Under the pieces are notes generated by a model. It searched no databases and was not told the DNA's origin. It was given only the letters and a program-made list of their open reading frames with translations. Positions 5,398-48,298 of a DNA stretch of 48,298 nt are shown here, one piece after another (position 1 is the first letter of the stretch; each line of letters opens with the position of its first letter). The translations under genes and the position numbers were made by a program. This DNA comes from a virus, in IMG/VR virus record IMGVR_UViG_3300037297_000228; one strand, 5' to 3'.

Positions 5398-6123
5398 TTA
5401 TTTTTTTATACGCTGGAGGGAAATAATAAAATTTAAAGAATCTCTCCAAATTTTATATATATTATTCTTTTGTTGTAATTGCTGAAGTGATTTAGTACGC
5501 CACTTAAAGGTCTGAACGTGCATTTGTTTATCAAAATCCTGTATTTTTTTTATTTCTCCTTTCTTAAATGTATAAGCTCCTCTGCCTAATTGTCCTCTTT
5601 TGGTAGGCACTGATTTCTGTAAGAGAAACTGATTAGAGCCGCCTCTTGATCCTAATACCCGCATCATAAACATAAAACGGGCCTTATAATCCCGACCCTG
5701 AAACTGTTCCGGTTTAAAGAATTTAGAAGATTTTTTAAGTCTGTATTTCCCTAGAACTTTTCTTTTTTTTGATCCACCCCTGGAATGTAAGGTTGTAATA
5801 CGTTTCTTAACAGGCTGTTTCCCTGTCTGCTGTTCTTCCCAACCTGTAAATCGAGGCCTTTTAATAGAGTATACTCTTGATATTTGTTTGTTTATTTCTG
5901 CCCCTGATTTTGCTTTTTCGACTCTAATTGATGACTTAACAAATTTTTCATTTCTAATAATCATATGATTGGAAAGATTTTTGATATCGTATTTTCTGGT
6001 CATAAAGGCTAGAGAATTAAGAACATTCGCAGAAACCGGCTTAAATAATTTTGGAGCTTTTTTAAAGAATTTTTTGAGAGCCTTTAAATCTTTTATATCC
6101 ATTGTGAAAAGTTCTTTTGCCAT
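5398..6123 (-). CDS. Hypothetical, very basic protein (241 aa)
   Basis: Long ORF, Lys/Arg-rich throughout. It has its own upstream TTGACT box. I do not recognise the family. Confidence 0.6.
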   Translation of the reverse strand: MAKELFTMDIKDLKALKKFFKKAPKLFKPVSANVLNSLAFMTRKYDIKNLSNHMIIRNEKFVKSSIRVEKAKSGAEINKQISRVYSIKRPRFTGWEEQQTGKQPVKKRITTLHSRGGSKKRKVLGKYRLKKSSKFFKPEQFQGRDYKARFMFMMRVLGSRGGSNQFLLQKSVPTKRGQLGRGAYTFKKGEIKKIQDFDKQMHVQTFKWRTKSLQQLQQKNNIYKIWRDSLNFIISLQRIKK

Positions 6124-6784: not shown

Positions 6785-6958
6785 ATGACACTTTACCGAA
6801 ACAAAAAAGTTAAATCAATAACAGCTTTAAAACATTTAGAAAATCTTCAAAACGAATACTCTGCTGTAAAAATTATTTGCGATCAATTTACTAGTAACGA
6901 AATAAAAGATTATGGTTTTAAAGTTTTAACTAATTTAAAAATTGTAGGAAATTATTAA
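6785..6958 (+). CDS. Small protein, 57 aa (MTLYRNKKVKSITALKHLENLQ...)
   Basis: ATG is preceded by GGGGAGAAATT (SD) within the conserved cassette 5'UTR. TAA at 6956..6958. Below the ORF-track cutoff. Confidence 0.55.
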   Translation: MTLYRNKKVKSITALKHLENLQNEYSAVKIICDQFTSNEIKDYGFKVLTNLKIVGNY

Positions 6959-6972
6959 AAATAATAGTCGAA

Positions 6973-7073
6973 ACCAGCTTTCGGGCTGGTCTGCTGAAAT
7001 TGACCTACCAGCACTGAAGAGACAGGTCACATAATTTCTAAAGCGCCCCTGGCCCTCAACTACGGGGGCGCTT
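6973..7073 (+). other. GC-rich cluster of three hairpins (terminator/antiterminator or small structured RNA candidate)
   Basis: Three stems: ACCAGC/GCTGGT (6973..6990), TGACCT/AGGTCA (7001..7029) and AAGCGCCCC/GGGGCGCTT (7041..7073). The cluster stands out from the AT-rich flanks, and no stem is followed by a U-tract. Confidence 0.5.
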
Positions 7074-7095: not shown

Positions 7096-7123
7096 TTGAC
7101 GTAATTAAAATATGTTCTATAAT
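7096..7123 (+). promoter_or_regulatory. Candidate late (structural operon) promoter
   Basis: TTGACG (7096..7101), a 16-nt spacer and TATAAT (7118..7123), preceded by an A-tract. Confidence 0.6.
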
Positions 7124-7129
7124 TGTGGC

Positions 7130-7402
7130 ATGGGATATATTAGTTTAAGAAAAGCACGAATAAGACGTCAGCTGACCGCAACTCAGAGAGCTTTGACAAG
7201 TTTATACGAATTACAAACAGAAATGTCCGCACATGAAAATATATCCTATGCGATTGATTCAGGGGAAGGCTCACAACGTACAACCCGCCGAAAATTTGAA
7301 GAAATTCAAGATCAAATTGATCGACTTGAAGCAAAAGAAGCCAGCCTTTTAAATGACCTCTATAGTATGGGTGTGGTTGCAGTTAGGTTGCGGAGAAAAT
7401 AA
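7130..7402 (+). CDS. gpW-like head-tail joining protein
   Basis: A roughly 90-aa helical protein with an Arg-rich C-terminus (VAVRLRRK), immediately upstream of a lambda-type portal as in lambda A-W-B order. The ORF track starts at 7112, but that ATG lies upstream of the -10 box. ATG 7130 would be leaderless. Confidence 0.55.
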   Translation: MGYISLRKARIRRQLTATQRALTSLYELQTEMSAHENISYAIDSGEGSQRTTRRKFEEIQDQIDRLEAKEASLLNDLYSMGVVAVRLRRK

Positions 7403-9538: not shown

Positions 9539-9859
9539 ATGAAAAAAATAATTATAAGCATTGTAACCTGTTTAATGATTTTTATTTTTGGGATTTTAAG
9601 TGGAACATTAATTTCCGGATGTAAAACAGCCCCTAAGCGAAAAAATTATCAAATGGAAAGTTGTTTTGCTATGGCTGATTGTGTGTATCAGATGGGAGAA
9701 AAAAATATTTCTGAGTGCAGAATATTAATTGAACAATGCGGAATCAGCTATGACGAAAAAAGATTAAGAAATAGGCATGAATATTGCATGAAGCAGGAAA
9801 ATCGGGCAGATCGGCAGACGTATAATGAATGTATGTTGCAATTAGTTCCAAAAAAATAG
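9539..9859 (+). CDS. Lipoprotein, Cys-rich (106 aa)
   Basis: MKKIIISIVTCLMIFIFGILSGTLISGC is a signal peptide with lipobox LISGC. The internal ATG at 9539 is preferred over the ORF-track start at 9497. The gene ends in TAG. Confidence 0.7.
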   Translation: MKKIIISIVTCLMIFIFGILSGTLISGCKTAPKRKNYQMESCFAMADCVYQMGEKNISECRILIEQCGISYDEKRLRNRHEYCMKQENRADRQTYNECMLQLVPKK

Positions 9860-11332: not shown

Positions 11333-11782
11333 ATGGCAGTTACAAATATAACTCAAAATCAAAATGTACCTTTTATCCACAATGAAGATACTATTGTGCG
11401 GACAAGAACTATTGCTCAGGATGCAGCAAGAACAGCGGATCTTTTGCAATATACTGTAATGGCATATAATGCAACTAACCAGAATTGGGTTCCATTTACT
11501 GCACTTGCAGATACCGAAGGTGAATCAATGCCGCGAGGGATTTATTTAGGAGAAGATATTCCATTTGCTGACCTTGTAGAAGGCGATATTGAAAACGCAT
11601 CAATTTTAGTTAAAAATGGAATTGTTAATAGAGATATGGTAGTTTGGGATCAGGATTTGCAAACTGCTGAAAGTATTGTTAATCCGGGAACAGTAAATGC
11701 AACTAGCGCAGAAATGGCATTAATAGAAACTGCAAATATTTCGTTCGAAGATGTAGAAGCCATCTCTGAGCAAGTGGAATAA
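11333..11782 (+). CDS. Head decoration protein (gpD-like)
   Basis: 149-aa ORF between the protease/scaffold gene and the major capsid gene, which is the lambda D position. Confidence 0.55.
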   Translation: MAVTNITQNQNVPFIHNEDTIVRTRTIAQDAARTADLLQYTVMAYNATNQNWVPFTALADTEGESMPRGIYLGEDIPFADLVEGDIENASILVKNGIVNRDMVVWDQDLQTAESIVNPGTVNATSAEMALIETANISFEDVEAISEQVE

Positions 11783-29621: not shown

Positions 29622-29759
29622 ATGAATAACAAAGAGCAAGCACTTTATTCTAAATTTATTAGTCTACCTGAAGGAATTGAAAAATATATTGCATGGGCCA
29701 AATATAACAATTATAAAAGAAAATTTTATAAACAAAAATCTAAAAGACATGAGCATTAA
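29622..29759 (+). CDS. Microprotein, 45 aa
   Basis: GGAGGG SD followed by ATG 29622. Sequence MNNKEQALYSKFISLPEGIEKYIAWAKYNNYKRKFYKQKSKRHEH. It ends inside the terminator stem. Confidence 0.45.
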   Translation: MNNKEQALYSKFISLPEGIEKYIAWAKYNNYKRKFYKQKSKRHEH

Positions 29760-29904
29760 TTTGCTCATGTCTTAACTTTTCAACAGGAATTTTATAAAAA
29801 ATTTTTTCATTCCATTCCTCCTGTTTTCCTTTGTTCCACTGCGCAACAGGACGGTAATATCCAACTACTCTACTATAAATTTCACATGGTATTTTTTTAT
29901 TCAT
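29740..29904 (-). CDS. NrdD C-terminal (glycyl-radical domain)-like mini-protein, 54 aa
   Basis: SRVVGYYRPVAQWNKGKQEEWNEK matches the RV.GY...WN.GK..E signature that surrounds the radical glycine of class III ribonucleotide reductases. ATG 29904 overlaps the helicase-gene stop (ATGA). The ORF-track start at 29943 lies inside the helicase gene. Confidence 0.55.
   Translation of the reverse strand: MNKKIPCEIYSRVVGYYRPVAQWNKGKQEEWNEKIFYKIPVEKLRHEQINAHVF
29744..29773. terminator. Bidirectional terminator (12-bp perfect stem)
   Basis: AAGACATGAGCA-ttaatt-TGCTCATGTCTT. T-rich sequence follows on the minus strand. It sits between convergent operons. Confidence 0.8.
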
Positions 29905-31445
29905 TTTCTTACCTTCAATTTTTTCTTTGCAAACCAAATCCATCCAGGCTTGTATCCTTTTATTTTTGCAATTATTGCAAGAAGAGGTACATTTATGGCA
30001 AAATTATTTTCGTTCGCTAATTGATGATAAGCCCAAAAAACAGAGTAACCGCAATCTTTTGCAATTGCAAGCATTTTTTTAACCGGTTCTTCCCCTTCAT
30101 TTTTCTTATATTCAAGAATTATTGAACAAATATTATCTTCATATTTTCTTTTTTCATCAAAATTCATTTCTGAAATTTTTACTGGAGTTTTTTCTTTTAA
30201 TTCGGCTGGAACTATTATCATCGGCTTACGGCAATCTTTTATTGTCTTATCCGGATTATGTGGGCAGGTACTACAATGCGGATTTGCGCAATACATAAAA
30301 TCAAGGTAAACACAAAGTTTCGGATTTCCTTTATCTTTTATTTTTTTTCTTTTTTGTGTCCCGTAAAAATTCCAGTTAATTTTTTCTAAATAATGAGGAG
30401 GGATACCTGGATATTCCGGCTCTTGATGTTCGAGCAGATTATTAACATGATCGAAAAATAGAGCATCTTTTTTGCCTCTAAATGGTCTTAAAATCCGTCC
30501 GATAGACTGAAAATAAACTGTCCTTGATAATGTCGGTCTGATAATTGCACCATAACTGACACGGGGAACATCTACTCCATATATAAAAACATCACAACCG
30601 CAAAGACCGTCAATTTCCCCAGCATTTAATTTTTCAACCAATTCAAATCTGTATCTATCAGACATCTTTCCGTCAATATTATAAAATTTAAATCCACTTT
30701 CCTGAAATTGCAAAGCCATTTTTTCAGCAGACTTTACAGATCTGCAAAAAATAAGTGCCTGTCTTCCAATTCCCCATTTGCGATAATGCTCAATAACTTT
30801 CCCGTAAATTTTTCGTCTCTGTAATAATATTTCAAGCTCTTCTTCATCATATTCGCTACCTCTAATTTTAATTTTGTCTAAGCCTTCAATCGGAGGTGAA
30901 AAATATCTAAGCGGACAAAGATAACCATTTTCTGTCAGCCAAGGAATTGATTTCCCTTCTATTAATATATTATATACTTCCGATAGTCCCCGTCCGTCTG
31001 TTCGTTCCGGTGTAGCAGTAAATCCGATTATTTTAGTTTTTTCCGGAAGATAATCTATAATTTTCTTTTGCCGATCAAGCATAATATGGCATTCGTCAAA
31101 AATTATTAAGTCAGGAAATTTTTTAATTTTTTTCAATCTTCTGATTAAACTATCTGAACTTATAACATGAACTAAAAACGCTTTACTTTCCTTAAATCCA
31201 GGCTTTATAAAATTATGAGGTACCGACCATTTTTGTAAATGTTTGCTGGACTGATTTAGTAATTCTTTTCTTGTTACGATAATCCAGACAGATTTTTGTT
31301 TTGAATATACTGATTCTGCCATTGATGCGAAAATAACAGTTTTACCACTGCCAGTCGCTGATTGAATACAAATTGATCTATGAATTGCCAGTTGTTTTCT
31401 TGCTTCAAGATATATTTCTTTTTGGTATTCTCTGAGGGCTTTCAA
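29901..31445 (-). CDS. SF2 DNA helicase (ResIII/DEAH-type plus Helicase_C)
   Basis: QSATGSGKT (Walker A), FDECH (motif II), FTATPER (motif III) and QSIGRILR (motif VI). A C-terminal Cys cluster is also present. Confidence 0.85.
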   Translation of the reverse strand: MKALREYQKEIYLEARKQLAIHRSICIQSATGSGKTVIFASMAESVYSKQKSVWIIVTRKELLNQSSKHLQKWSVPHNFIKPGFKESKAFLVHVISSDSLIRRLKKIKKFPDLIIFDECHIMLDRQKKIIDYLPEKTKIIGFTATPERTDGRGLSEVYNILIEGKSIPWLTENGYLCPLRYFSPPIEGLDKIKIRGSEYDEEELEILLQRRKIYGKVIEHYRKWGIGRQALIFCRSVKSAEKMALQFQESGFKFYNIDGKMSDRYRFELVEKLNAGEIDGLCGCDVFIYGVDVPRVSYGAIIRPTLSRTVYFQSIGRILRPFRGKKDALFFDHVNNLLEHQEPEYPGIPPHYLEKINWNFYGTQKRKKIKDKGNPKLCVYLDFMYCANPHCSTCPHNPDKTIKDCRKPMIIVPAELKEKTPVKISEMNFDEKRKYEDNICSIILEYKKNEGEEPVKKMLAIAKDCGYSVFWAYHQLANENNFAINVPLLAIIAKIKGYKPGWIWFAKKKLKVRK

Positions 31446-36916: not shown

Positions 36917-37009
36917 AGTATTTTCCTTTTCTTTTTAAATATTCTATTAAAAATTTTCTGAATATTTTTTATCCCTGAAATTATATATATTATTAGGTAT
37001 AGGATCATT

Positions 37010-37447
37010 TTATCCCTGCCATTTTCTCTTCCTTCCTGAATCTATATGTATACCCCAATTATAAAGACCTAAACCTCCAGGTAAAATATTTTGATCCCAG
37101 GCTTCAAGTGCCCATAAATGTAATTCTTTAATAATTATTCTATCTGCATGTCCATCCCAGGCCATGCCTGCTATGTGTTTGCTACCAAATACAACACGGC
37201 GTAAATCCTGGTCGTGATCCAAATCAAAAACTTTACCCTGTCGTTTATACGAATTTTCATAAATTGATTTATTATGATCAAGACATCTATTTACGCAATG
37301 TGTTATCATTCTTAAGCTACCGATAAGAACTCTAAAATTTTCTAAAATTTCATAAAGTTTTTCGTTTATTAATGCCTGCCCACATCCACAACGGCAAGTA
37401 ATTTCTGCAAGTGAGAAATGTTCAGAGGGTTTCATTTTTGCCTCCAT
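37010..37447 (-). CDS. Peptidase M15A-type cell-wall hydrolase (endolysin candidate)
   Basis: SEHFSLAEITCRCGCG at the N-terminus, CLDHN, and GSKHIAGMAWDGHAD (the H..G.A.D zinc ligand motif). The start may instead be ATG 37435, which overlaps the upstream stop. Confidence 0.75.
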   Translation of the reverse strand: MEAKMKPSEHFSLAEITCRCGCGQALINEKLYEILENFRVLIGSLRMITHCVNRCLDHNKSIYENSYKRQGKVFDLDHDQDLRRVVFGSKHIAGMAWDGHADRIIIKELHLWALEAWDQNILPGGLGLYNWGIHIDSGRKRKWQG

Positions 37448-37611
37448 TTTGGATCAATATATGGTATTTTTTTACCATTTTTTAATTTTATCATTCCTGC
37501 AAAACCTACAATTTTTGGATTTGGTGTAAATTTTACCTGTCCTTTATATCCTATTAATTTCCCATTTTTATCTTTAATTTCTCTTTTTTTTAATTGTTGT
37601 TTTATTGTCAT
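37432..37611 (-). CDS. Small protein, 59 aa, resembling the middle of a YopX domain
   Basis: MTIKQQLKKREIKDKNGKLIGYKGQVKF... contains KDKNGK-x-I-x-x-G. It has its own AAGGA SD. Confidence 0.4.
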   Translation of the reverse strand: MTIKQQLKKREIKDKNGKLIGYKGQVKFTPNPKIVGFAGMIKLKNGKKIPYIDPKWRQK

Positions 37612-37615
37612 GTTT

Positions 37616-37735
37616 TTATCCTTCTTTTAATCCTGTATATTGCATAATTCCAGTAAATTCAGAAAAGTTAAAAATATCTGTATAAATCATCTTTTTAGAT
37701 ATTCTATTCCATGTTCTAAATTTAAATTCTCTCAT
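37616..37735 (-). CDS. Microprotein, 39 aa, resembling a YopX N-terminus
   Basis: MREFKFRTWNRISKKMIYTDIFNFSEFTGIMQYTGLKEG. Its ATG overlaps the upstream stop (ATGA). Confidence 0.4.
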   Translation of the reverse strand: MREFKFRTWNRISKKMIYTDIFNFSEFTGIMQYTGLKEG

Positions 37736-38214
37736 GTTTTTATCCTTAAAATTTCTTCTTCGTCTTCTTTTTTGTTTTCAATTTCTTTTACTGCTGCGTT
37801 TGCTTTTTCGCCAATTCTGTCCAGTCTGCGCATACTATCTCCGACATTATTCATTATTGTATTTGATTCGTGCTGATTTTCTGCTGTAATTAATGCCAGT
37901 TCTTTTGCTCTGGAATATGTCGTATAATATAGATCCATAACCTTTTTTTTCATAATTAAAATGTCTTCAACTGTTTTTTCAAGGCGTTCAATTTCTGCAA
38001 TATAACCGTATTCCTGAATTTCATATTGAATTTTCTGAGCATCTAAATTTTCCTTTTCCTGTCTATCCCGAAGTTTATTATTATATGCGACAGCATTATC
38101 TATTCTATTTTTAATTTCATCTTTTATTTTCGTTTTATGAATAAATTGGTCTGTGTGATGTTTCATTATATAATTATCAATTTTTCCATAAAACCATTTG
38201 CGGATTGAAAACAT
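37732..38214 (-). CDS. Coiled-coil protein, 160 aa
   Basis: ATG 38214 is preceded by AGGAGGGACGGGA. The longer ORF-track version (start 38286) merely translates through the tRNA-like element. Confidence 0.6.
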   Translation of the reverse strand: MFSIRKWFYGKIDNYIMKHHTDQFIHKTKIKDEIKNRIDNAVAYNNKLRDRQEKENLDAQKIQYEIQEYGYIAEIERLEKTVEDILIMKKKVMDLYYTTYSRAKELALITAENQHESNTIMNNVGDSMRRLDRIGEKANAAVKEIENKKEDEEEILRIKT

Positions 38215-38225
38215 TCCCGTCCCTC

Positions 38226-38293
38226 CTGCGCTTGCCGGACTCGAACCGGCATAAATTATTTTTATAATTCGTCCTCCCTGGGACAATAGCGCA
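38226..38293 (-). ncRNA. tRNA-like element 2 (68 nt) with a non-canonical anticodon arm
   Basis: The minus strand reads TGCGCTA-TT-GTCC-CAGGGA-GGAC-G-AATTAT-AAAA-ATAATT-TAT-GCCGG-TTCGAGT-CCGGC-AAGCGCA-G. Acceptor stem (6 bp plus A.A), D arm and T arm are canonical. The anticodon position is a palindromic AT hairpin with a 4-6-nt loop. Confidence 0.45.
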
Positions 38294-38306
38294 ATATAAT
38301 TTTATA

Positions 38307-39119
38307 TTATAATAAATCATCCGGTTCTTTTTTAGCAACAACCTTTTCGTCTGCAGCTTCAATTTTTTTTATTGCTGTTTCGGGAGTTCCATAGCTTTTA
38401 AAATCTGTTTCATAAAAATCATCTGCACCAACGGCATTGTCAATTTCTGGAGAAATACTTATATTGCGTAGCAACGCTTTCATTACAGTTTTCAGTCCCA
38501 TACCATTAAATGATTTTGACCAGGGGGAATTTTCCGGATTATATTTAAAAGTTGCTGAATAACTATCACGCATTTCATTAATTTCTTCTACTGTCATCCA
38601 TTTTACATGTGTTGCACCAGATTTTAATTTTAATGCTGCAAAAAATCCTATAACTTCACCCCTATCTTTCATAGCAGGAATAAAATTATAGTCGTCTCCT
38701 TGCATGGATTTTTTTAGCTCAAATTTATCATTTTGTCTTACCAAATCAGAACTTAAAAATTCAACTTTGCCGGATTCCAGAGCAAGATCAACCATTCCAT
38801 TTTTCATAATTTGATATGAAACTTTAAAATTTCCATCTTTTCCCTTAAATCCAATTAATGCGCTTTTCCCTTCTGCCGGATTCAGAGATAATCCTGTTGT
38901 TGCTGCATATCGAAGAGCATTATAAACTGATAATTTCCCTTGCTCAGTTTTAAGAACTTCGACAAGTTCAGGTTTTTCGACAATTGCAATCATTGCAGAT
39001 TTCAAAAACGCAGTTTCATCGTATTTTCTAATTGCATACTCTTTTAATGATTTCCCGAAATGCTGTAAGAATTGTCCTGTCAATGATTCTTTTGTTGCTG
39101 GTAAATTTTTATCTGTCAT
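38307..39119 (-). CDS. recT: RecT-family single-strand annealing protein
   Basis: GLSLNPAEGKSALIGFKG...YQIMKNGMVDLALESGKV...VRQNDKFE fits the RecT core pattern. It is paired with a YqaJ-type exonuclease about 0.9 kb upstream. Confidence 0.75.
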   Translation of the reverse strand: MTDKNLPATKESLTGQFLQHFGKSLKEYAIRKYDETAFLKSAMIAIVEKPELVEVLKTEQGKLSVYNALRYAATTGLSLNPAEGKSALIGFKGKDGNFKVSYQIMKNGMVDLALESGKVEFLSSDLVRQNDKFELKKSMQGDDYNFIPAMKDRGEVIGFFAALKLKSGATHVKWMTVEEINEMRDSYSATFKYNPENSPWSKSFNGMGLKTVMKALLRNISISPEIDNAVGADDFYETDFKSYGTPETAIKKIEAADEKVVAKKEPDDLL

Positions 39120-39295
39120 AGTATTACTCCTTTTTTTGTGATATGAATAGTTAATACAAATTTATAAATTTTTAAATTTATGAGGCATAAAGGCGCTGGG
39201 AATTTTCCTTCAAAAATTTCGATATGAAATAATGCAGGTGTTTCGCCTCTATAATATCCGGCCTCGATTAATAAGTTTTTAATTTTAATATTCAT
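39116..39295 (-). CDS. Microprotein, 59 aa
   Basis: MNIKIKNLLIEAGYYRGETPALFHIEIFEGKFPAPL... Its stop overlaps the recT ATG (ATGA). The internal ATG is preferred over the ORF-track start at 39424. Confidence 0.45.
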   Translation of the reverse strand: MNIKIKNLLIEAGYYRGETPALFHIEIFEGKFPAPLCLINLKIYKFVLTIHITKKGVIL

Positions 39296-39461
39296 TTCTT
39301 TTTCTCTCCTTTTCTTTAAATATATGAATACATTCTTCTGAACCCCAAACATCCTGACAACTTTTATATCCAATAGCTCCGCACATAGGAAATGTAAGTA
39401 AAAATCTATAATATTTACATTCACAACATTTCGGAATTTTTTCTTTATTTTTTTTAATCAT
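39285..39461 (-). CDS. Cys-rich microprotein, 58 aa
   Basis: MIKKNKEKIPKCCECKYYRFLLTFPMCGAIGYKSCQDVWGSEECIHIF... Coupled to the upstream ORF by ATGA. Confidence 0.45.
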   Translation of the reverse strand: MIKKNKEKIPKCCECKYYRFLLTFPMCGAIGYKSCQDVWGSEECIHIFKEKERKRNEY

Positions 39462-39634
39462 TTAATTACCTCCTGGAAATCATTCCCAAAAATATATTTA
39501 ATATTAAAACATTTTCCAAACCACATATTAAAAAATACTGTATTACCTTTTATTTCCCCATTAGAAAGATAGCTATATTTTGATTTATATCGCAATGGCA
39601 ATAATTGTTTTAAAGCCCATATTATTTTTTTCAT
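39458..39634 (-). CDS. Microprotein, 58 aa
   Basis: AAGGAGGGTGG SD followed by ATG 39634. Sequence MKKIIWALKQLLPLRYKSKYSYLSNGEIKGNTVFFNMWFGKCF... Confidence 0.45.
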   Translation of the reverse strand: MKKIIWALKQLLPLRYKSKYSYLSNGEIKGNTVFFNMWFGKCFNIKYIFGNDFQEVIK

Positions 39635-39649
39635 TTCTTACCACCCTCC

Positions 39650-39841
39650 TTAAAATGGAATATCTTCTGAATTATTTTTCTTTGCAGGACTCCAGACGAT
39701 GTTATAATCCGGCTAATTATCCTGCTGTTTCTCTTCATTTTTAAAAATTGCAAAATTTAATTTTATTCCTGGAAACTCAATTGTTCCTGAATAATATTTT
39801 TTGCCGTCTTTTTCTTTCAACCACAAAGCACCTATTTTCAT
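39650..39841 (-). CDS. DUF736-like small protein interrupted by an in-frame TAG (42 aa + TAG + 20 aa)
   Basis: MKIGALWLKEKDGKKYYSGTIEFPGIKLNFAIFKNEEKQQDN-TAG-PDYNIVWSPAKKNNSEDIPF-TAA. The TAG is at 39715..39713. The conserved-looking PDY.I motif lies after the stop. Confidence 0.45.
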
Positions 39842-39842
39842 T

Positions 39843-39998
39843 TTACCTCCTTTTACTGATAGTTAATAACATTAAACTACACATCCATCCCCATACCCCC
39901 CAATAGAACAGATTTATTTCAAATGGAATAATTTGTAATTTTGAAAAAATACCAAGAGCTATATTTATTAAAATTAATATTATTGCTATTGCTTTCAT
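39843..39998 (-). CDS. Small membrane protein, 51 aa
   Basis: MKAIAIILILINIALGIFSKLQIIPFEINLFYWGVWGWMCSLMLLTISKRR, with two hydrophobic segments. Confidence 0.45.
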   Translation of the reverse strand: MKAIAIILILINIALGIFSKLQIIPFEINLFYWGVWGWMCSLMLLTISKRR

Positions 39999-40031
39999 TT
40001 TATACCTTCTTTTTATTTTTTATATATAATG

Positions 40032-46991: not shown

Positions 46992-47180
46992 TTACCTTTT
47001 TAAAATATAATTTTCAAAATCATTTTTATGTATAATTAGTGTATCAGAATATATTTTACTTGGTTTATATGCTATTTCTGCAATATCAAAAAATTTTTTT
47101 AATTGTTTAAAATTTAATTCTATTACTTTATTTTTTTCGAATATAAAATTTAATCTTGATTTTTTATGATCGTATTTCAT
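46992..47180 (-). CDS. Hypothetical protein, 62 aa
   Basis: ORF in the track. Confidence 0.5.
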   Translation of the reverse strand: MKYDHKKSRLNFIFEKNKVIELNFKQLKKFFDIAEIAYKPSKIYSDTLIIHKNDFENYILKR

Positions 47181-47208: not shown

Positions 47209-47282
47209 TGGGCAAGGAAGGACTCGAACCTTCAATACCTTTTCCTAAATGTCTTTTTCAGATCATCAAAGATCACTTGCCC
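47209..47282 (-). ncRNA. tRNA-like element 1 (74 nt) with a non-canonical D/anticodon region
   Basis: The minus strand reads GGGCAAG-TGATCTTTGATGATCTGAAAAAGACATTTAGGAAAAGGTATT-GAAGG-TTCGAGT-CCTTC-CTTGCCC-A. It has a perfect 7-bp acceptor stem, a canonical T arm and a discriminator A, and no encoded CCA. No standard anticodon stem-loop can be drawn. Confidence 0.45.
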
Positions 47283-47294
47283 TTAAGTCGATTT

Positions 47295-47744
47295 TTAAAT
47301 AATTTGTTCAAATGCCTTTTGAAAATCATCAACATAATATTTTCTTTTTCTTTCGAGTTCAGCAATTTCTATTTTCTTTTTTTCAATTTGTCTATTGAAT
47401 TTATCCAAAATATTTGATTTTGTAAAAATCTTTTCGTAATTATTATAATGAACAATTTCGTATTTTGGCTGGTCTTTTTCCGTTTTTACCGTGATAAAAT
47501 CAAAATCGACATCACTATAACCATCATCTAAAACCATTATTTCTATTGCGGGATTGTTTTCAAATTCAGCAAACCCAACAATAACACCAGCTTTAATTTT
47601 GGGTGATGAATAACTCATATCAAGAACTTTAACAGGATCCCCGACATGAAATGTATCAATGCGTTTTGCATTTCGCAAATCCACTTCCATTTTAATTCCA
47701 TTTATTTCAATGATTCTTTTATCTTTCTTTTCCATTTCTTCCAT
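47295..47744 (-). CDS. Hypothetical protein, 149 aa
   Basis: ORF in the track with an N-terminal beta-rich region and a C-terminal coiled coil. It is flanked by a 14-nt direct repeat. Confidence 0.6.
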   Translation of the reverse strand: MEEMEKKDKRIIEINGIKMEVDLRNAKRIDTFHVGDPVKVLDMSYSSPKIKAGVIVGFAEFENNPAIEIMVLDDGYSDVDFDFITVKTEKDQPKYEIVHYNNYEKIFTKSNILDKFNRQIEKKKIEIAELERKRKYYVDDFQKAFEQII

Positions 47745-48114: not shown

Positions 48115-48285
48115 TTATTTAATTTTTTTCCAAATCCAGATCATAAATATATAAAATATCAAATCAGCCTGGAATAAAATTACCCAGTCTTCACCTTTAT
48201 TTTTGTTAATAAATAGGTAATATCCTATTGTAATTGAAACAGATATTAATAATATTACTGCTGCTCCCCAAATTAATTTTTTCAT
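48115..48285 (-). CDS. Small two-TM membrane protein, 56 aa, spanning the terminal-repeat boundary
   Basis: GGAGACAAA SD followed by ATG 48285. Sequence MKKLIWGAAVILLISVSITIGYYLFINKNKGEDWVILFQADLIFYIFMIWIWKKIK. The 5' 114 nt lie inside the 127-bp repeat. Confidence 0.5.
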   Translation of the reverse strand: MKKLIWGAAVILLISVSITIGYYLFINKNKGEDWVILFQADLIFYIFMIWIWKKIK

Positions 48286-48298
48286 TTTGTCTCCTTTA
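48172..48298. repeat. Terminal direct repeat, right copy (identical to 1..127)
   Basis: Exact 127/127 match to the start of the window. Confidence 0.97.

Follow-up and report, generated by a model that had tools for sequence, protein, structure and literature searches.

A tRNA-shaped element without an anticodon loop between recT and the next gene of a phage early operon

The virus genome recorded in IMG/VR as IMGVR_UViG_3300037297_000228 (48,298 nucleotides (nt), analyzed at full length and called the window below) carries, between recT and the next gene of a leftward early operon, a 68-nt element that is shaped like a transfer RNA (tRNA) and lacks an anticodon loop. We refer to it as element 2; a sister, element 1, lies elsewhere in the same genome. 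Judged by its sequence, element 2 is tRNA-derived, and it is at most an RNA-processing site or a structural RNA. The explanation that accounts best for its features, and to which we give about an even chance, is that of a tRNA derivative which is dead for decoding and still recognized by ribonuclease (RNase) P and RNase Z of the host, which would cut the transcript between recT and the next gene.

On the minus strand, element 2 is composed of the arms listed in Table 1, with UU joining the acceptor stem to the D arm and a variable region of 3 nt (UAU) preceding the T arm. The sequence was re-read and is exactly that given in a preliminary description of this DNA, which had assigned to it an acceptor stem of 6 base pairs (bp) plus an A.A mismatch, a D arm with GG in its loop, a canonical T arm with a loop common to element 1, and an A/T hairpin that leaves no possibility for a 7-nt anticodon loop. 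All four assignments hold. The acceptor stem matches both sequence and fold, the D arm is seen in the fold as well as in the match to the tRNA model, and the shared stretch GGTTCGAGTCC occurs exactly twice in the window, once in each element. The A/T hairpin consists of one G.U and six A-U pairs around AAAA. It can alternatively be drawn with 5 bp and a 6-nt loop, and a scan for a 7-nt loop with U33 and R37, closed by a 5-bp stem, found none. Element 2 cannot decode because it has no anticodon loop.

The minimum-free-energy fold of element 2 is a four-arm cloverleaf (-25.7 kcal/mol, z = -3.87). Only 1 of 200 shuffled sequences folds as well, and the cloverleaf persists when the RNA is folded in a 136-nt context. 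Among the 23 cloverleaf pairs, 22 are intact, and the predicted fold completes the set by pairing A66, which is mismatched with A7 in the acceptor stem, with U48. The resulting 6 + 6 = 12 stacked acceptor/T pairs give the same total as the usual 7 + 5. Moreover, U8 and the residues of the elbow (G18-G19, U54-U55-C56, A58 and G53-C61) are kept, with C rather than A at position 14. The D loop (6 nt), the anticodon region (loopless) and the variable region have been shortened, and the stems are undamaged. The 48 nt outside the 20-nt A/T section, which comprises the hairpin and the variable region, have a G+C content of 66.7% in a genome of 31.6% and between flanks of 29-30%.

The tRNA family of Rfam (RF00005) matches the exact ends of element 2 over model positions 1-71 of 71, with 24.5 bits and an expectation value (E) of 0.0052 in a search of 321 nt against 4227 Rfam families; the gathering score of the family is 29 bits. 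By our arithmetic, scaling for length gives E of ~0.8 for the whole window and all families and of ~2e-4 for the tRNA family alone. The match is absent from a whole-window Rfam scan with stricter filters. A check with ARAGORN, which the preliminary description had proposed, gave a divided answer: the default settings found no tRNA and no transfer-messenger RNA (tmRNA) in the window, and a relaxed threshold called the site (c[38225,38294]) as 'tRNA-???' with a 2-nt anticodon. Element 2 has the 12-pair acceptor/T stack and UUCRANY T loop (UUCGAGU) of a canonical tRNA, together with U8 and a D arm with G18-G19, and falls short of one in its score relative to the gathering score, in the 7-nt anticodon loop and in a variable region of at least 4 nt. 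Its similarity to tRNA above chance and its position, where relatives hold tRNA genes, are those of a tRNA-derived gene.

A covariance model of element 2 points to the type of tRNA involved. Its best non-self match is a phage tRNA-Met(CAU) gene (L210, 27.9 bits; L numbers denote sequences that were compared), followed by two tRNA-like sequences that lack the anticodon arm (L203, 25.9 bits; L219, 25.3 bits) and a further phage tRNA-Met(CAU) gene (L208, 23.4 bits). The tRNA-Met genes are hit at E = 4e-5. Furthermore, 18 of the 25 distinct IMG/VR sequences that have the T arm of element 2 and a GCGCA acceptor end are tRNA-Met(CAU) according to ARAGORN at its default settings. Together, the covariance model and the T-arm pattern show element 2 to be a tRNA derivative, closest to phage tRNA-Met genes.

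The interval after recT was compared in 81 recT neighborhoods, RecT homologs being numerous, and in several longer contigs. In several distinct lineages, recT is followed at a distance of 100-700 nt by sense-strand tRNAs or tRNA-like sequences. They comprise a canonical tRNA-Thr (L013, 68.5 bits), a tRNA-Gly (L074, 57.1 bits), two aberrant tRNAs (L003, 40.3 and 37.8 bits), a tRNA carrying a 76-nt insertion (L011), a 140-nt element with a tRNA-Leu-like D arm (L022), a 48-nt mini element (L018) and a 76-nt element (L019). The relative L084 is AT-rich, and no other fetched contig has a RecT of higher identity (66%). At the position of element 2 it carries a tRNA-Gly(UCC)-like gene (11447-11570, Rfam 37.4 bits) with ~56 nt inserted in the D loop and with an intact anticodon arm, T arm and acceptor stem. 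In L086, a canonical Gln/Pro/Thr array lies upstream of the homolog of the window's downstream gene, with a fourth tRNA, Met, that is called by relaxed ARAGORN only. As the relatives vary between tRNAs, tRNAs with insertions, mini elements and nothing, the interval is a volatile tRNA-gene locus, and descent from an ordinary phage tRNA gene is therefore the simplest origin of element 2. A D-arm-anchored scan, which served as a control independent of the T arm, gave nine matches, all of them on the sense strand; in five, the spacing to the T loop is abnormal. Archaeal-type introns were considered as the source of the inserted tRNAs in relatives; the peptidoglycan hydrolase-like endolysin of the phage makes them unlikely.

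Element 2 lies where the preliminary description had put it, in the 92-nt gap between the end of recT and the start of the downstream gene, which encodes a protein of 160 amino acids (aa) with no assigned function. The start proposed there for this gene, ATG 38214 with its own AGGAGGG, agrees with the homologs in L084, L085, L001 and L091, which all begin at this position. The AGGAGGG stays mostly unpaired in the fold of the 136-nt context. At least three homologous loci (L001, L084 and L085) carry a stable hairpin immediately 5' of the Shine-Dalgarno sequence of the downstream gene; the hairpin of L091 is weak. This shared position suggests that a structured element 5' of the downstream gene is a common feature, which in the window takes the form of the tRNA-like sequence.

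Bacterial RNase P recognizes the minihelix of acceptor stem and T arm and the elbow. Its substrates also include RNAs other than tRNA, such as the phage M3 and C4 RNAs and operon mRNAs (PMC11143913). Element 2 would be transcribed within the early operon, between recT and the 160-aa gene, and appears to keep the parts that RNase P and the 3' tRNA-processing enzymes recognize. RNase P would most likely cut 5' of U38293. An RNase Z-type enzyme would most likely cut after G38226, because no CCA is encoded. The two cuts would separate the recT message from a downstream message that has its Shine-Dalgarno sequence at the cut and starts with GAGGG, 6 nt before the AUG, with a possible benefit to the phage. 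The tRNA or tRNA-like sequence of several relatives is preceded, 4-8 nt from its 5' end, by a hairpin rich in G+C. Such a hairpin would fit a protection of the upstream 3' end after cleavage; the window has none. A promoter of its own was rejected for element 2. The only candidate is a weak sigma-70-like match (Table 1), and such matches are not evidence alone because they are no commoner in the window than in shuffled sequence (30 found, 23.9 +/- 4.6 in shuffles). Likewise, no intrinsic terminator was predicted at element 2 on the sense strand, the only match being the complement of the T arm.

Table 1. Position of element 2, its parts, its sister element and neighboring features in the window.
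Feature	Position	Strand	Description
tRNA-like element 2	38226..38293	-	68 nt; U1 = 38293, discriminator G = 38226; RF00005 match, cloverleaf fold, relaxed ARAGORN
Acceptor stem, 5' strand	38287..38293	-	UGCGCUA; 6 bp + A.A with 38227..38233
D arm	38271..38284	-	GUCC-CAGGGA-GGAC; 4-bp stem, short 6-nt loop containing GG
A/T hairpin at anticodon-arm position	38253..38270	-	GAAUUAU-AAAA-AUAAUUU; 7 pairs including G.U, 4-nt loop
T arm	38233..38251	-	(U)GCCGG-UUCGAGU-CCGGC(A); canonical TPsiC-type; fold adds U48-A66 pair
Acceptor stem, 3' strand	38227..38233	-	AAGCGCA; no encoded CCA after discriminator G
Shine-Dalgarno sequence of downstream gene	38221..38227	-	AGGAGGG; overlaps last acceptor base and discriminator of element 2
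Downstream gene	37732..38214	-	160 aa, no assigned function; start ATG 38214, homologs begin there
recT	38307..39119	-	Ends 13 nt before element 2; PF03837 4.8e-25, phrog_148 2.9e-39
Weak sigma-70-like promoter match	38309..38338	-	TTGCTA-18-TATTAT; ends 15 nt before element 2; 9/12 positions
tRNA-like element 1	47209..47282	-	74 nt; RF00005 29.1 bits, local ends over D and anticodon arms

Two further tRNA-like sequences suggest that elements of this kind can be maintained. L203 (4976-5034, minus strand) and L219 (4651-4710, plus strand) hold 59-60-nt tRNA-like sequences without an anticodon arm (Rfam 40.9 and 43.5 bits). They are identical at 55 of 60 positions (92%) between 100-nt flanks that are about 50% identical. 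Each follows an intrinsic terminator by 4-5 nt and lies upstream of the terminase genes, in the leader of the late operon. As far as their sequences can tell, the pair is a precedent for maintenance. Immediately upstream of the tRNA-like sequence there is a strong promoter match in L203 and, in L219, a gene for a Q-like antiterminator; a blastn search with both regions against phage records gave no match at E = 1e-5. The intact helices and high G+C content of element 2, together with the conservation between L203 and L219, speak in favor of a retained function.

The sister element of the same genome is placed between the open reading frames (ORFs) 47295..47744 and 46992..47180. Its perfect 7-bp acceptor stem and its T arm and T loop form a perfect 12-bp minihelix, and its 42-nt middle has genomic G+C content and cannot be aligned to the tRNA model. 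Among the sequences matching its 3' pattern, 31 of the 41 called by ARAGORN are tRNA-Tyr(GUA), and the acceptor stem and T arm of element 1 accordingly look similar to those of tRNA-Tyr. The preliminary description had suggested a function other than decoding for the two tRNA-like sequences. The existence of the second element and the sense orientation stand. Retention for a function is not established, because no orthologue of element 2 was found, the tRNA locus is volatile and there is a precedent for a deletion derivative in Vibrio phage K476 (see below).

Several observations weigh against a processed element that is kept for its function. The covariance model of element 2 found no orthologue in 93 sequence sources, and the only other copy is on a contig with 100% identity. 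No match was obtained with blastn of positions 37000..40000 against 50,697 phage records, with RecT or the 160-aa protein as the sole query against IMG/VR, with DNA patterns of T arm plus acceptor stem in viral contigs, or with patterns of D arm plus T loop in viral contigs and GTDB genomes. An alignment of the 160-aa family likewise gave no match in IMG/VR and a single one in GTDB, the 3.2-kb contig L086 (JBAYGX010000133.1) of a metagenome-assembled genome binned as Candidatus Gracilibacteria. Judged from the C-termini of the homologs, TGA is still a stop codon at the end of the 160-aa gene of the window. L085, L091 and L001, the last within the 100 nt that it covers, have the same downstream gene and hold only hairpins there, without a tRNA-like sequence. 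Finally, the intactness of T arm and acceptor stem across our catalogue of tRNA-like sequences is partly circular, because the scans required both.

These points bear on the closest competitor, a possible but on balance doubtful account, according to which element 2 is an inert remnant: a recently disabled phage tRNA gene with no selected role that has not yet been deleted, any cleavage being incidental. Among relatives, tRNAs are freely gained and lost at this locus, and a single deletion can produce an arm-less tRNA-like sequence. In Vibrio phage K476 (OZ195911 141592-141651; L233 694-753), a 60-nt feature with an encoded CCA is annotated as tRNA and derives from the tRNA-Arg(CCU) of the related Vibrio phage D533 (L235 390-463) by loss of 14 nt in a plain deletion. 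K476 retains another, intact tRNA-Arg(CCU) nearby. Similarly, L023 has a 13-nt deletion through the T arm of a mini element of the L018 type. The missing orthologue and the score below the Rfam cut-off would also fit a remnant. Its G+C content, 67% outside the A/T section in a 32% G+C genome, and its 22 of 23 intact pairs are harder to reconcile with decay. Several separate changes are confined to loops, the A/T arm is itself a perfect helix, and the element occupies a tight 92-nt gap in a compact genome. Moreover, the interior of element 1 has drifted around a perfect minihelix.

The 60-nt feature of K476 is carried by seven near-identical isolates. An unannotated 60-nt arm-less tRNA-like sequence is also present in Bacteroides phage BF1-TP2 (PQ571263, about 67159-67219; L232 694-754), with an acceptor stem (GCUCCCU/AGGGAGC) equal to that of the Vibrio phage element and a G+C-rich hairpin 4 nt before it.

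Alternatively, element 2 might act as a decoy or sponge, that is, as a tRNA-shaped RNA outside translation that binds host factors recognizing the tRNA body or its 3' end. Candidate targets would be defense toxins that modify or cut acceptor ends and enzymes of tRNA processing or modification. The full L-shape, including a helix of anticodon-arm length, is kept though decoding is impossible, and arm-less tRNA-like sequences recur in unrelated phages, with one conserved pair. However, neither a tRNA-related enzyme nor a known anti-defense gene was seen beside element 2 in the Pfam and PHROGs scans, the CCA is not encoded, and element 2 is unique to this genome. We therefore consider a decoy improbable.

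Much less probable still is a functional tRNA that uses an unusual anticodon loop, of 6 or 8 nt, for decoding or frameshifting. The relaxed ARAGORN call does draw a 6-nt loop, and the acceptor, D and T arms are in good order, but the arm allows no 7-nt loop with U33 and R37, the most stable fold leaves a 4-nt loop and the variable region has just 3 nt. With an 8-nt loop, nucleotide 26 would be missing and the variable region would shrink to 2 nt. We attach equally little weight to an attachment or recombination site that carries a tRNA fragment. Phage attachment (attP) sites often lie within tRNA-like sequences (PMC8022706, PMC9897764), yet no integrase was found among the ORFs scanned with Pfam or PHROGs or in the precomputed Pfam list for 28.4-48.3 kilobases (kb). 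In addition, both acceptor strands are present, not the 3' part alone, and the element is internal to an operon, with recT on one side and the next gene on the other. Least credible of all is that the longer ORF 37732..38286 is a real gene and the RNA fold coincidental: a public gene caller predicts its 184-aa product (P0001), which would be marked by the peptide MSQGGRIIKIIYAGSSPASAGGTG, but a strong AGGAGGG precedes ATG 38214, the tRNA-model match is significant, and the ORF is, as the preliminary description had held, a read-through artefact because the homologs start at ATG 38214 and none matches the 24-residue extension from its TTG.

Taken together, a decoding-dead tRNA derivative that is still processed remains our preferred reading of element 2. 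More broadly, and tentatively, decoding-dead tRNA-shaped RNAs might be a class that recurs in phage operons, is conserved in part and includes elements 1 and 2. Its members would serve either as RNase P/Z-dependent punctuation of long transcripts or as harmless decoys for tRNA-targeting host factors. It is conceivable, though we would not rate it higher, that the anticodon arm in this class has been deleted, closed into a hairpin or replaced by another structure. Elements of this kind are numerous in both small viral samples that we took, and we found no description of anticodon-arm-less tRNA-like sequences of phages in the literature searched. A MAFFT alignment of the tRNA-like sequences misplaces L019 and element 1, and its pair counts therefore show only general tRNA covariation. 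A further group of ~124-nt elements with a tRNA-Leu-like D arm occurs in viral tRNA arrays (L112 5280-5403, minus strand, with pattern matches in L115, L145 and L164); their common, conserved insert shows compensatory changes (ACAG/CUGU vs CUAA/UUAG), which likewise speak for retention.

The window is a complete myovirus-like phage genome. One arm encodes terminase, portal, protease, major head protein and tail sheath, and the other is the long leftward early operon. Positions 1-115 are identical to 48172-48286. As its ends repeat, the assembly is circular or circularly permuted, with a genome of about 48.17 kb. A candidate type II hammerhead ribozyme lies at 6966..7031 on the plus strand (RF02276, 33.9 bits with a gathering score of 37, E = 9.7e-5 in a 1.35-kb search). 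Its CGAAAC, GUC and CUGAAGA core is intact, and it sits upstream of the portal gene, in the gap that separates ORF 6785..6958 from ORF 7112..7402.

Other structured RNAs and small ORFs recur in the related phages. One conserved hairpin (L084 about 11575-11603, L085 about 9540-9565, L088 about 2858-2882, L091 about 5836-5858) precedes genes of the 160-aa family and a neighboring gene. Its loop reads GCAGAYC...ACUCA and its stems covary (CACACG/CGUGUG, CGCG/CGCG, AGACG/CGUCU); this motif is absent from the window. A second hairpin, with covarying stems, an ACUCCA-type loop and a following UAUCUGYA, is found after recT in L018, L019, L036, L025 and L085. It stands directly before the tRNA-like sequence in L018 and L019 and before the next gene in L085. 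Small ORFs resembling the C-terminal glycyl-radical part of NrdD also recur near the recombination genes: between recT and the tRNA-like sequence in L018 and L019, at 2385-2531 in L087, at 1288-1428 in L091, and in the window at about 29740-29943 (L002 18344-18547).

For annotation, such elements matter in that gene callers read through them and tRNA finders miss them or label them tRNA. If they are processed, phages would have a means of cutting long operon transcripts with host tRNA enzymes and independently of terminators, and mitochondrial tRNA punctuation and MALAT1/mascRNA would have a counterpart in bacteria. If such elements are only remnants, they would record a fast turnover in phage tRNA arrays.

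Known tRNA-like RNAs that tRNA-processing enzymes cut from longer transcripts include mascRNA at the MALAT1 3' end, the tRNA-like parts of the TMERs of murine gammaherpesvirus 68 and the tRNAs that punctuate mitochondrial transcripts. By analogy, element 2 may likewise be a non-decoding tRNA-shaped module that recruits RNase P and RNase Z and defines the ends of the neighboring RNAs. In contrast to element 2, whose processing is predicted, these systems are eukaryotic or organellar, and their sequences are unrelated to it. The tRNA-like domain of tmRNA shares the acceptor/T-arm top half without an anticodon, whereas element 2 has C3-G70 rather than G3.U70 and neither an mRNA-like domain nor a tag frame. 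Among the non-tRNA substrates of bacterial RNase P, the M3 RNA of phi80, the C4 antisense precursor of P1/P7 and intercistronic mRNA sites have tRNA-like or minihelix-like structures (PMC11143913), but they are not full cloverleaves from tRNA genes.

Phage tRNA genes within operons are known, and their excision from mRNA is an acknowledged open point (PMC8022706); fragments of tRNA genes in genomes are known as well (PMC9897764). Element 2 resembles the operon tRNA genes in sequence family, in its acceptor, D and T arms, in its sense orientation and in a locus where relatives have real tRNAs. It differs from them in the lacking anticodon loop, the 3-nt variable region and the 6-nt D loop, in its score below the Rfam cut-off and in being passed over by default ARAGORN. 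Closer in kind are the phage tRNA pseudogenes and arm-less tRNA-like sequences of K476, BF1-TP2, L203, L219 and Psychrobacter phage Psymv2 ('tRNA-OTHER'), which have a tRNA body without a usable anticodon arm and share the sense orientation in operons or tRNA arrays. With L203 and L219 in particular, element 2 has the GCGCU acceptor, G73 and the GCCGG T stem in common. Their canonical D arm (UAGCUCAGUUGGUAGAGC) differs from that of element 2, and where they have replaced the anticodon arm by 3-4 nt, element 2 keeps an A/T hairpin of 18 nt, the length of the arm itself.

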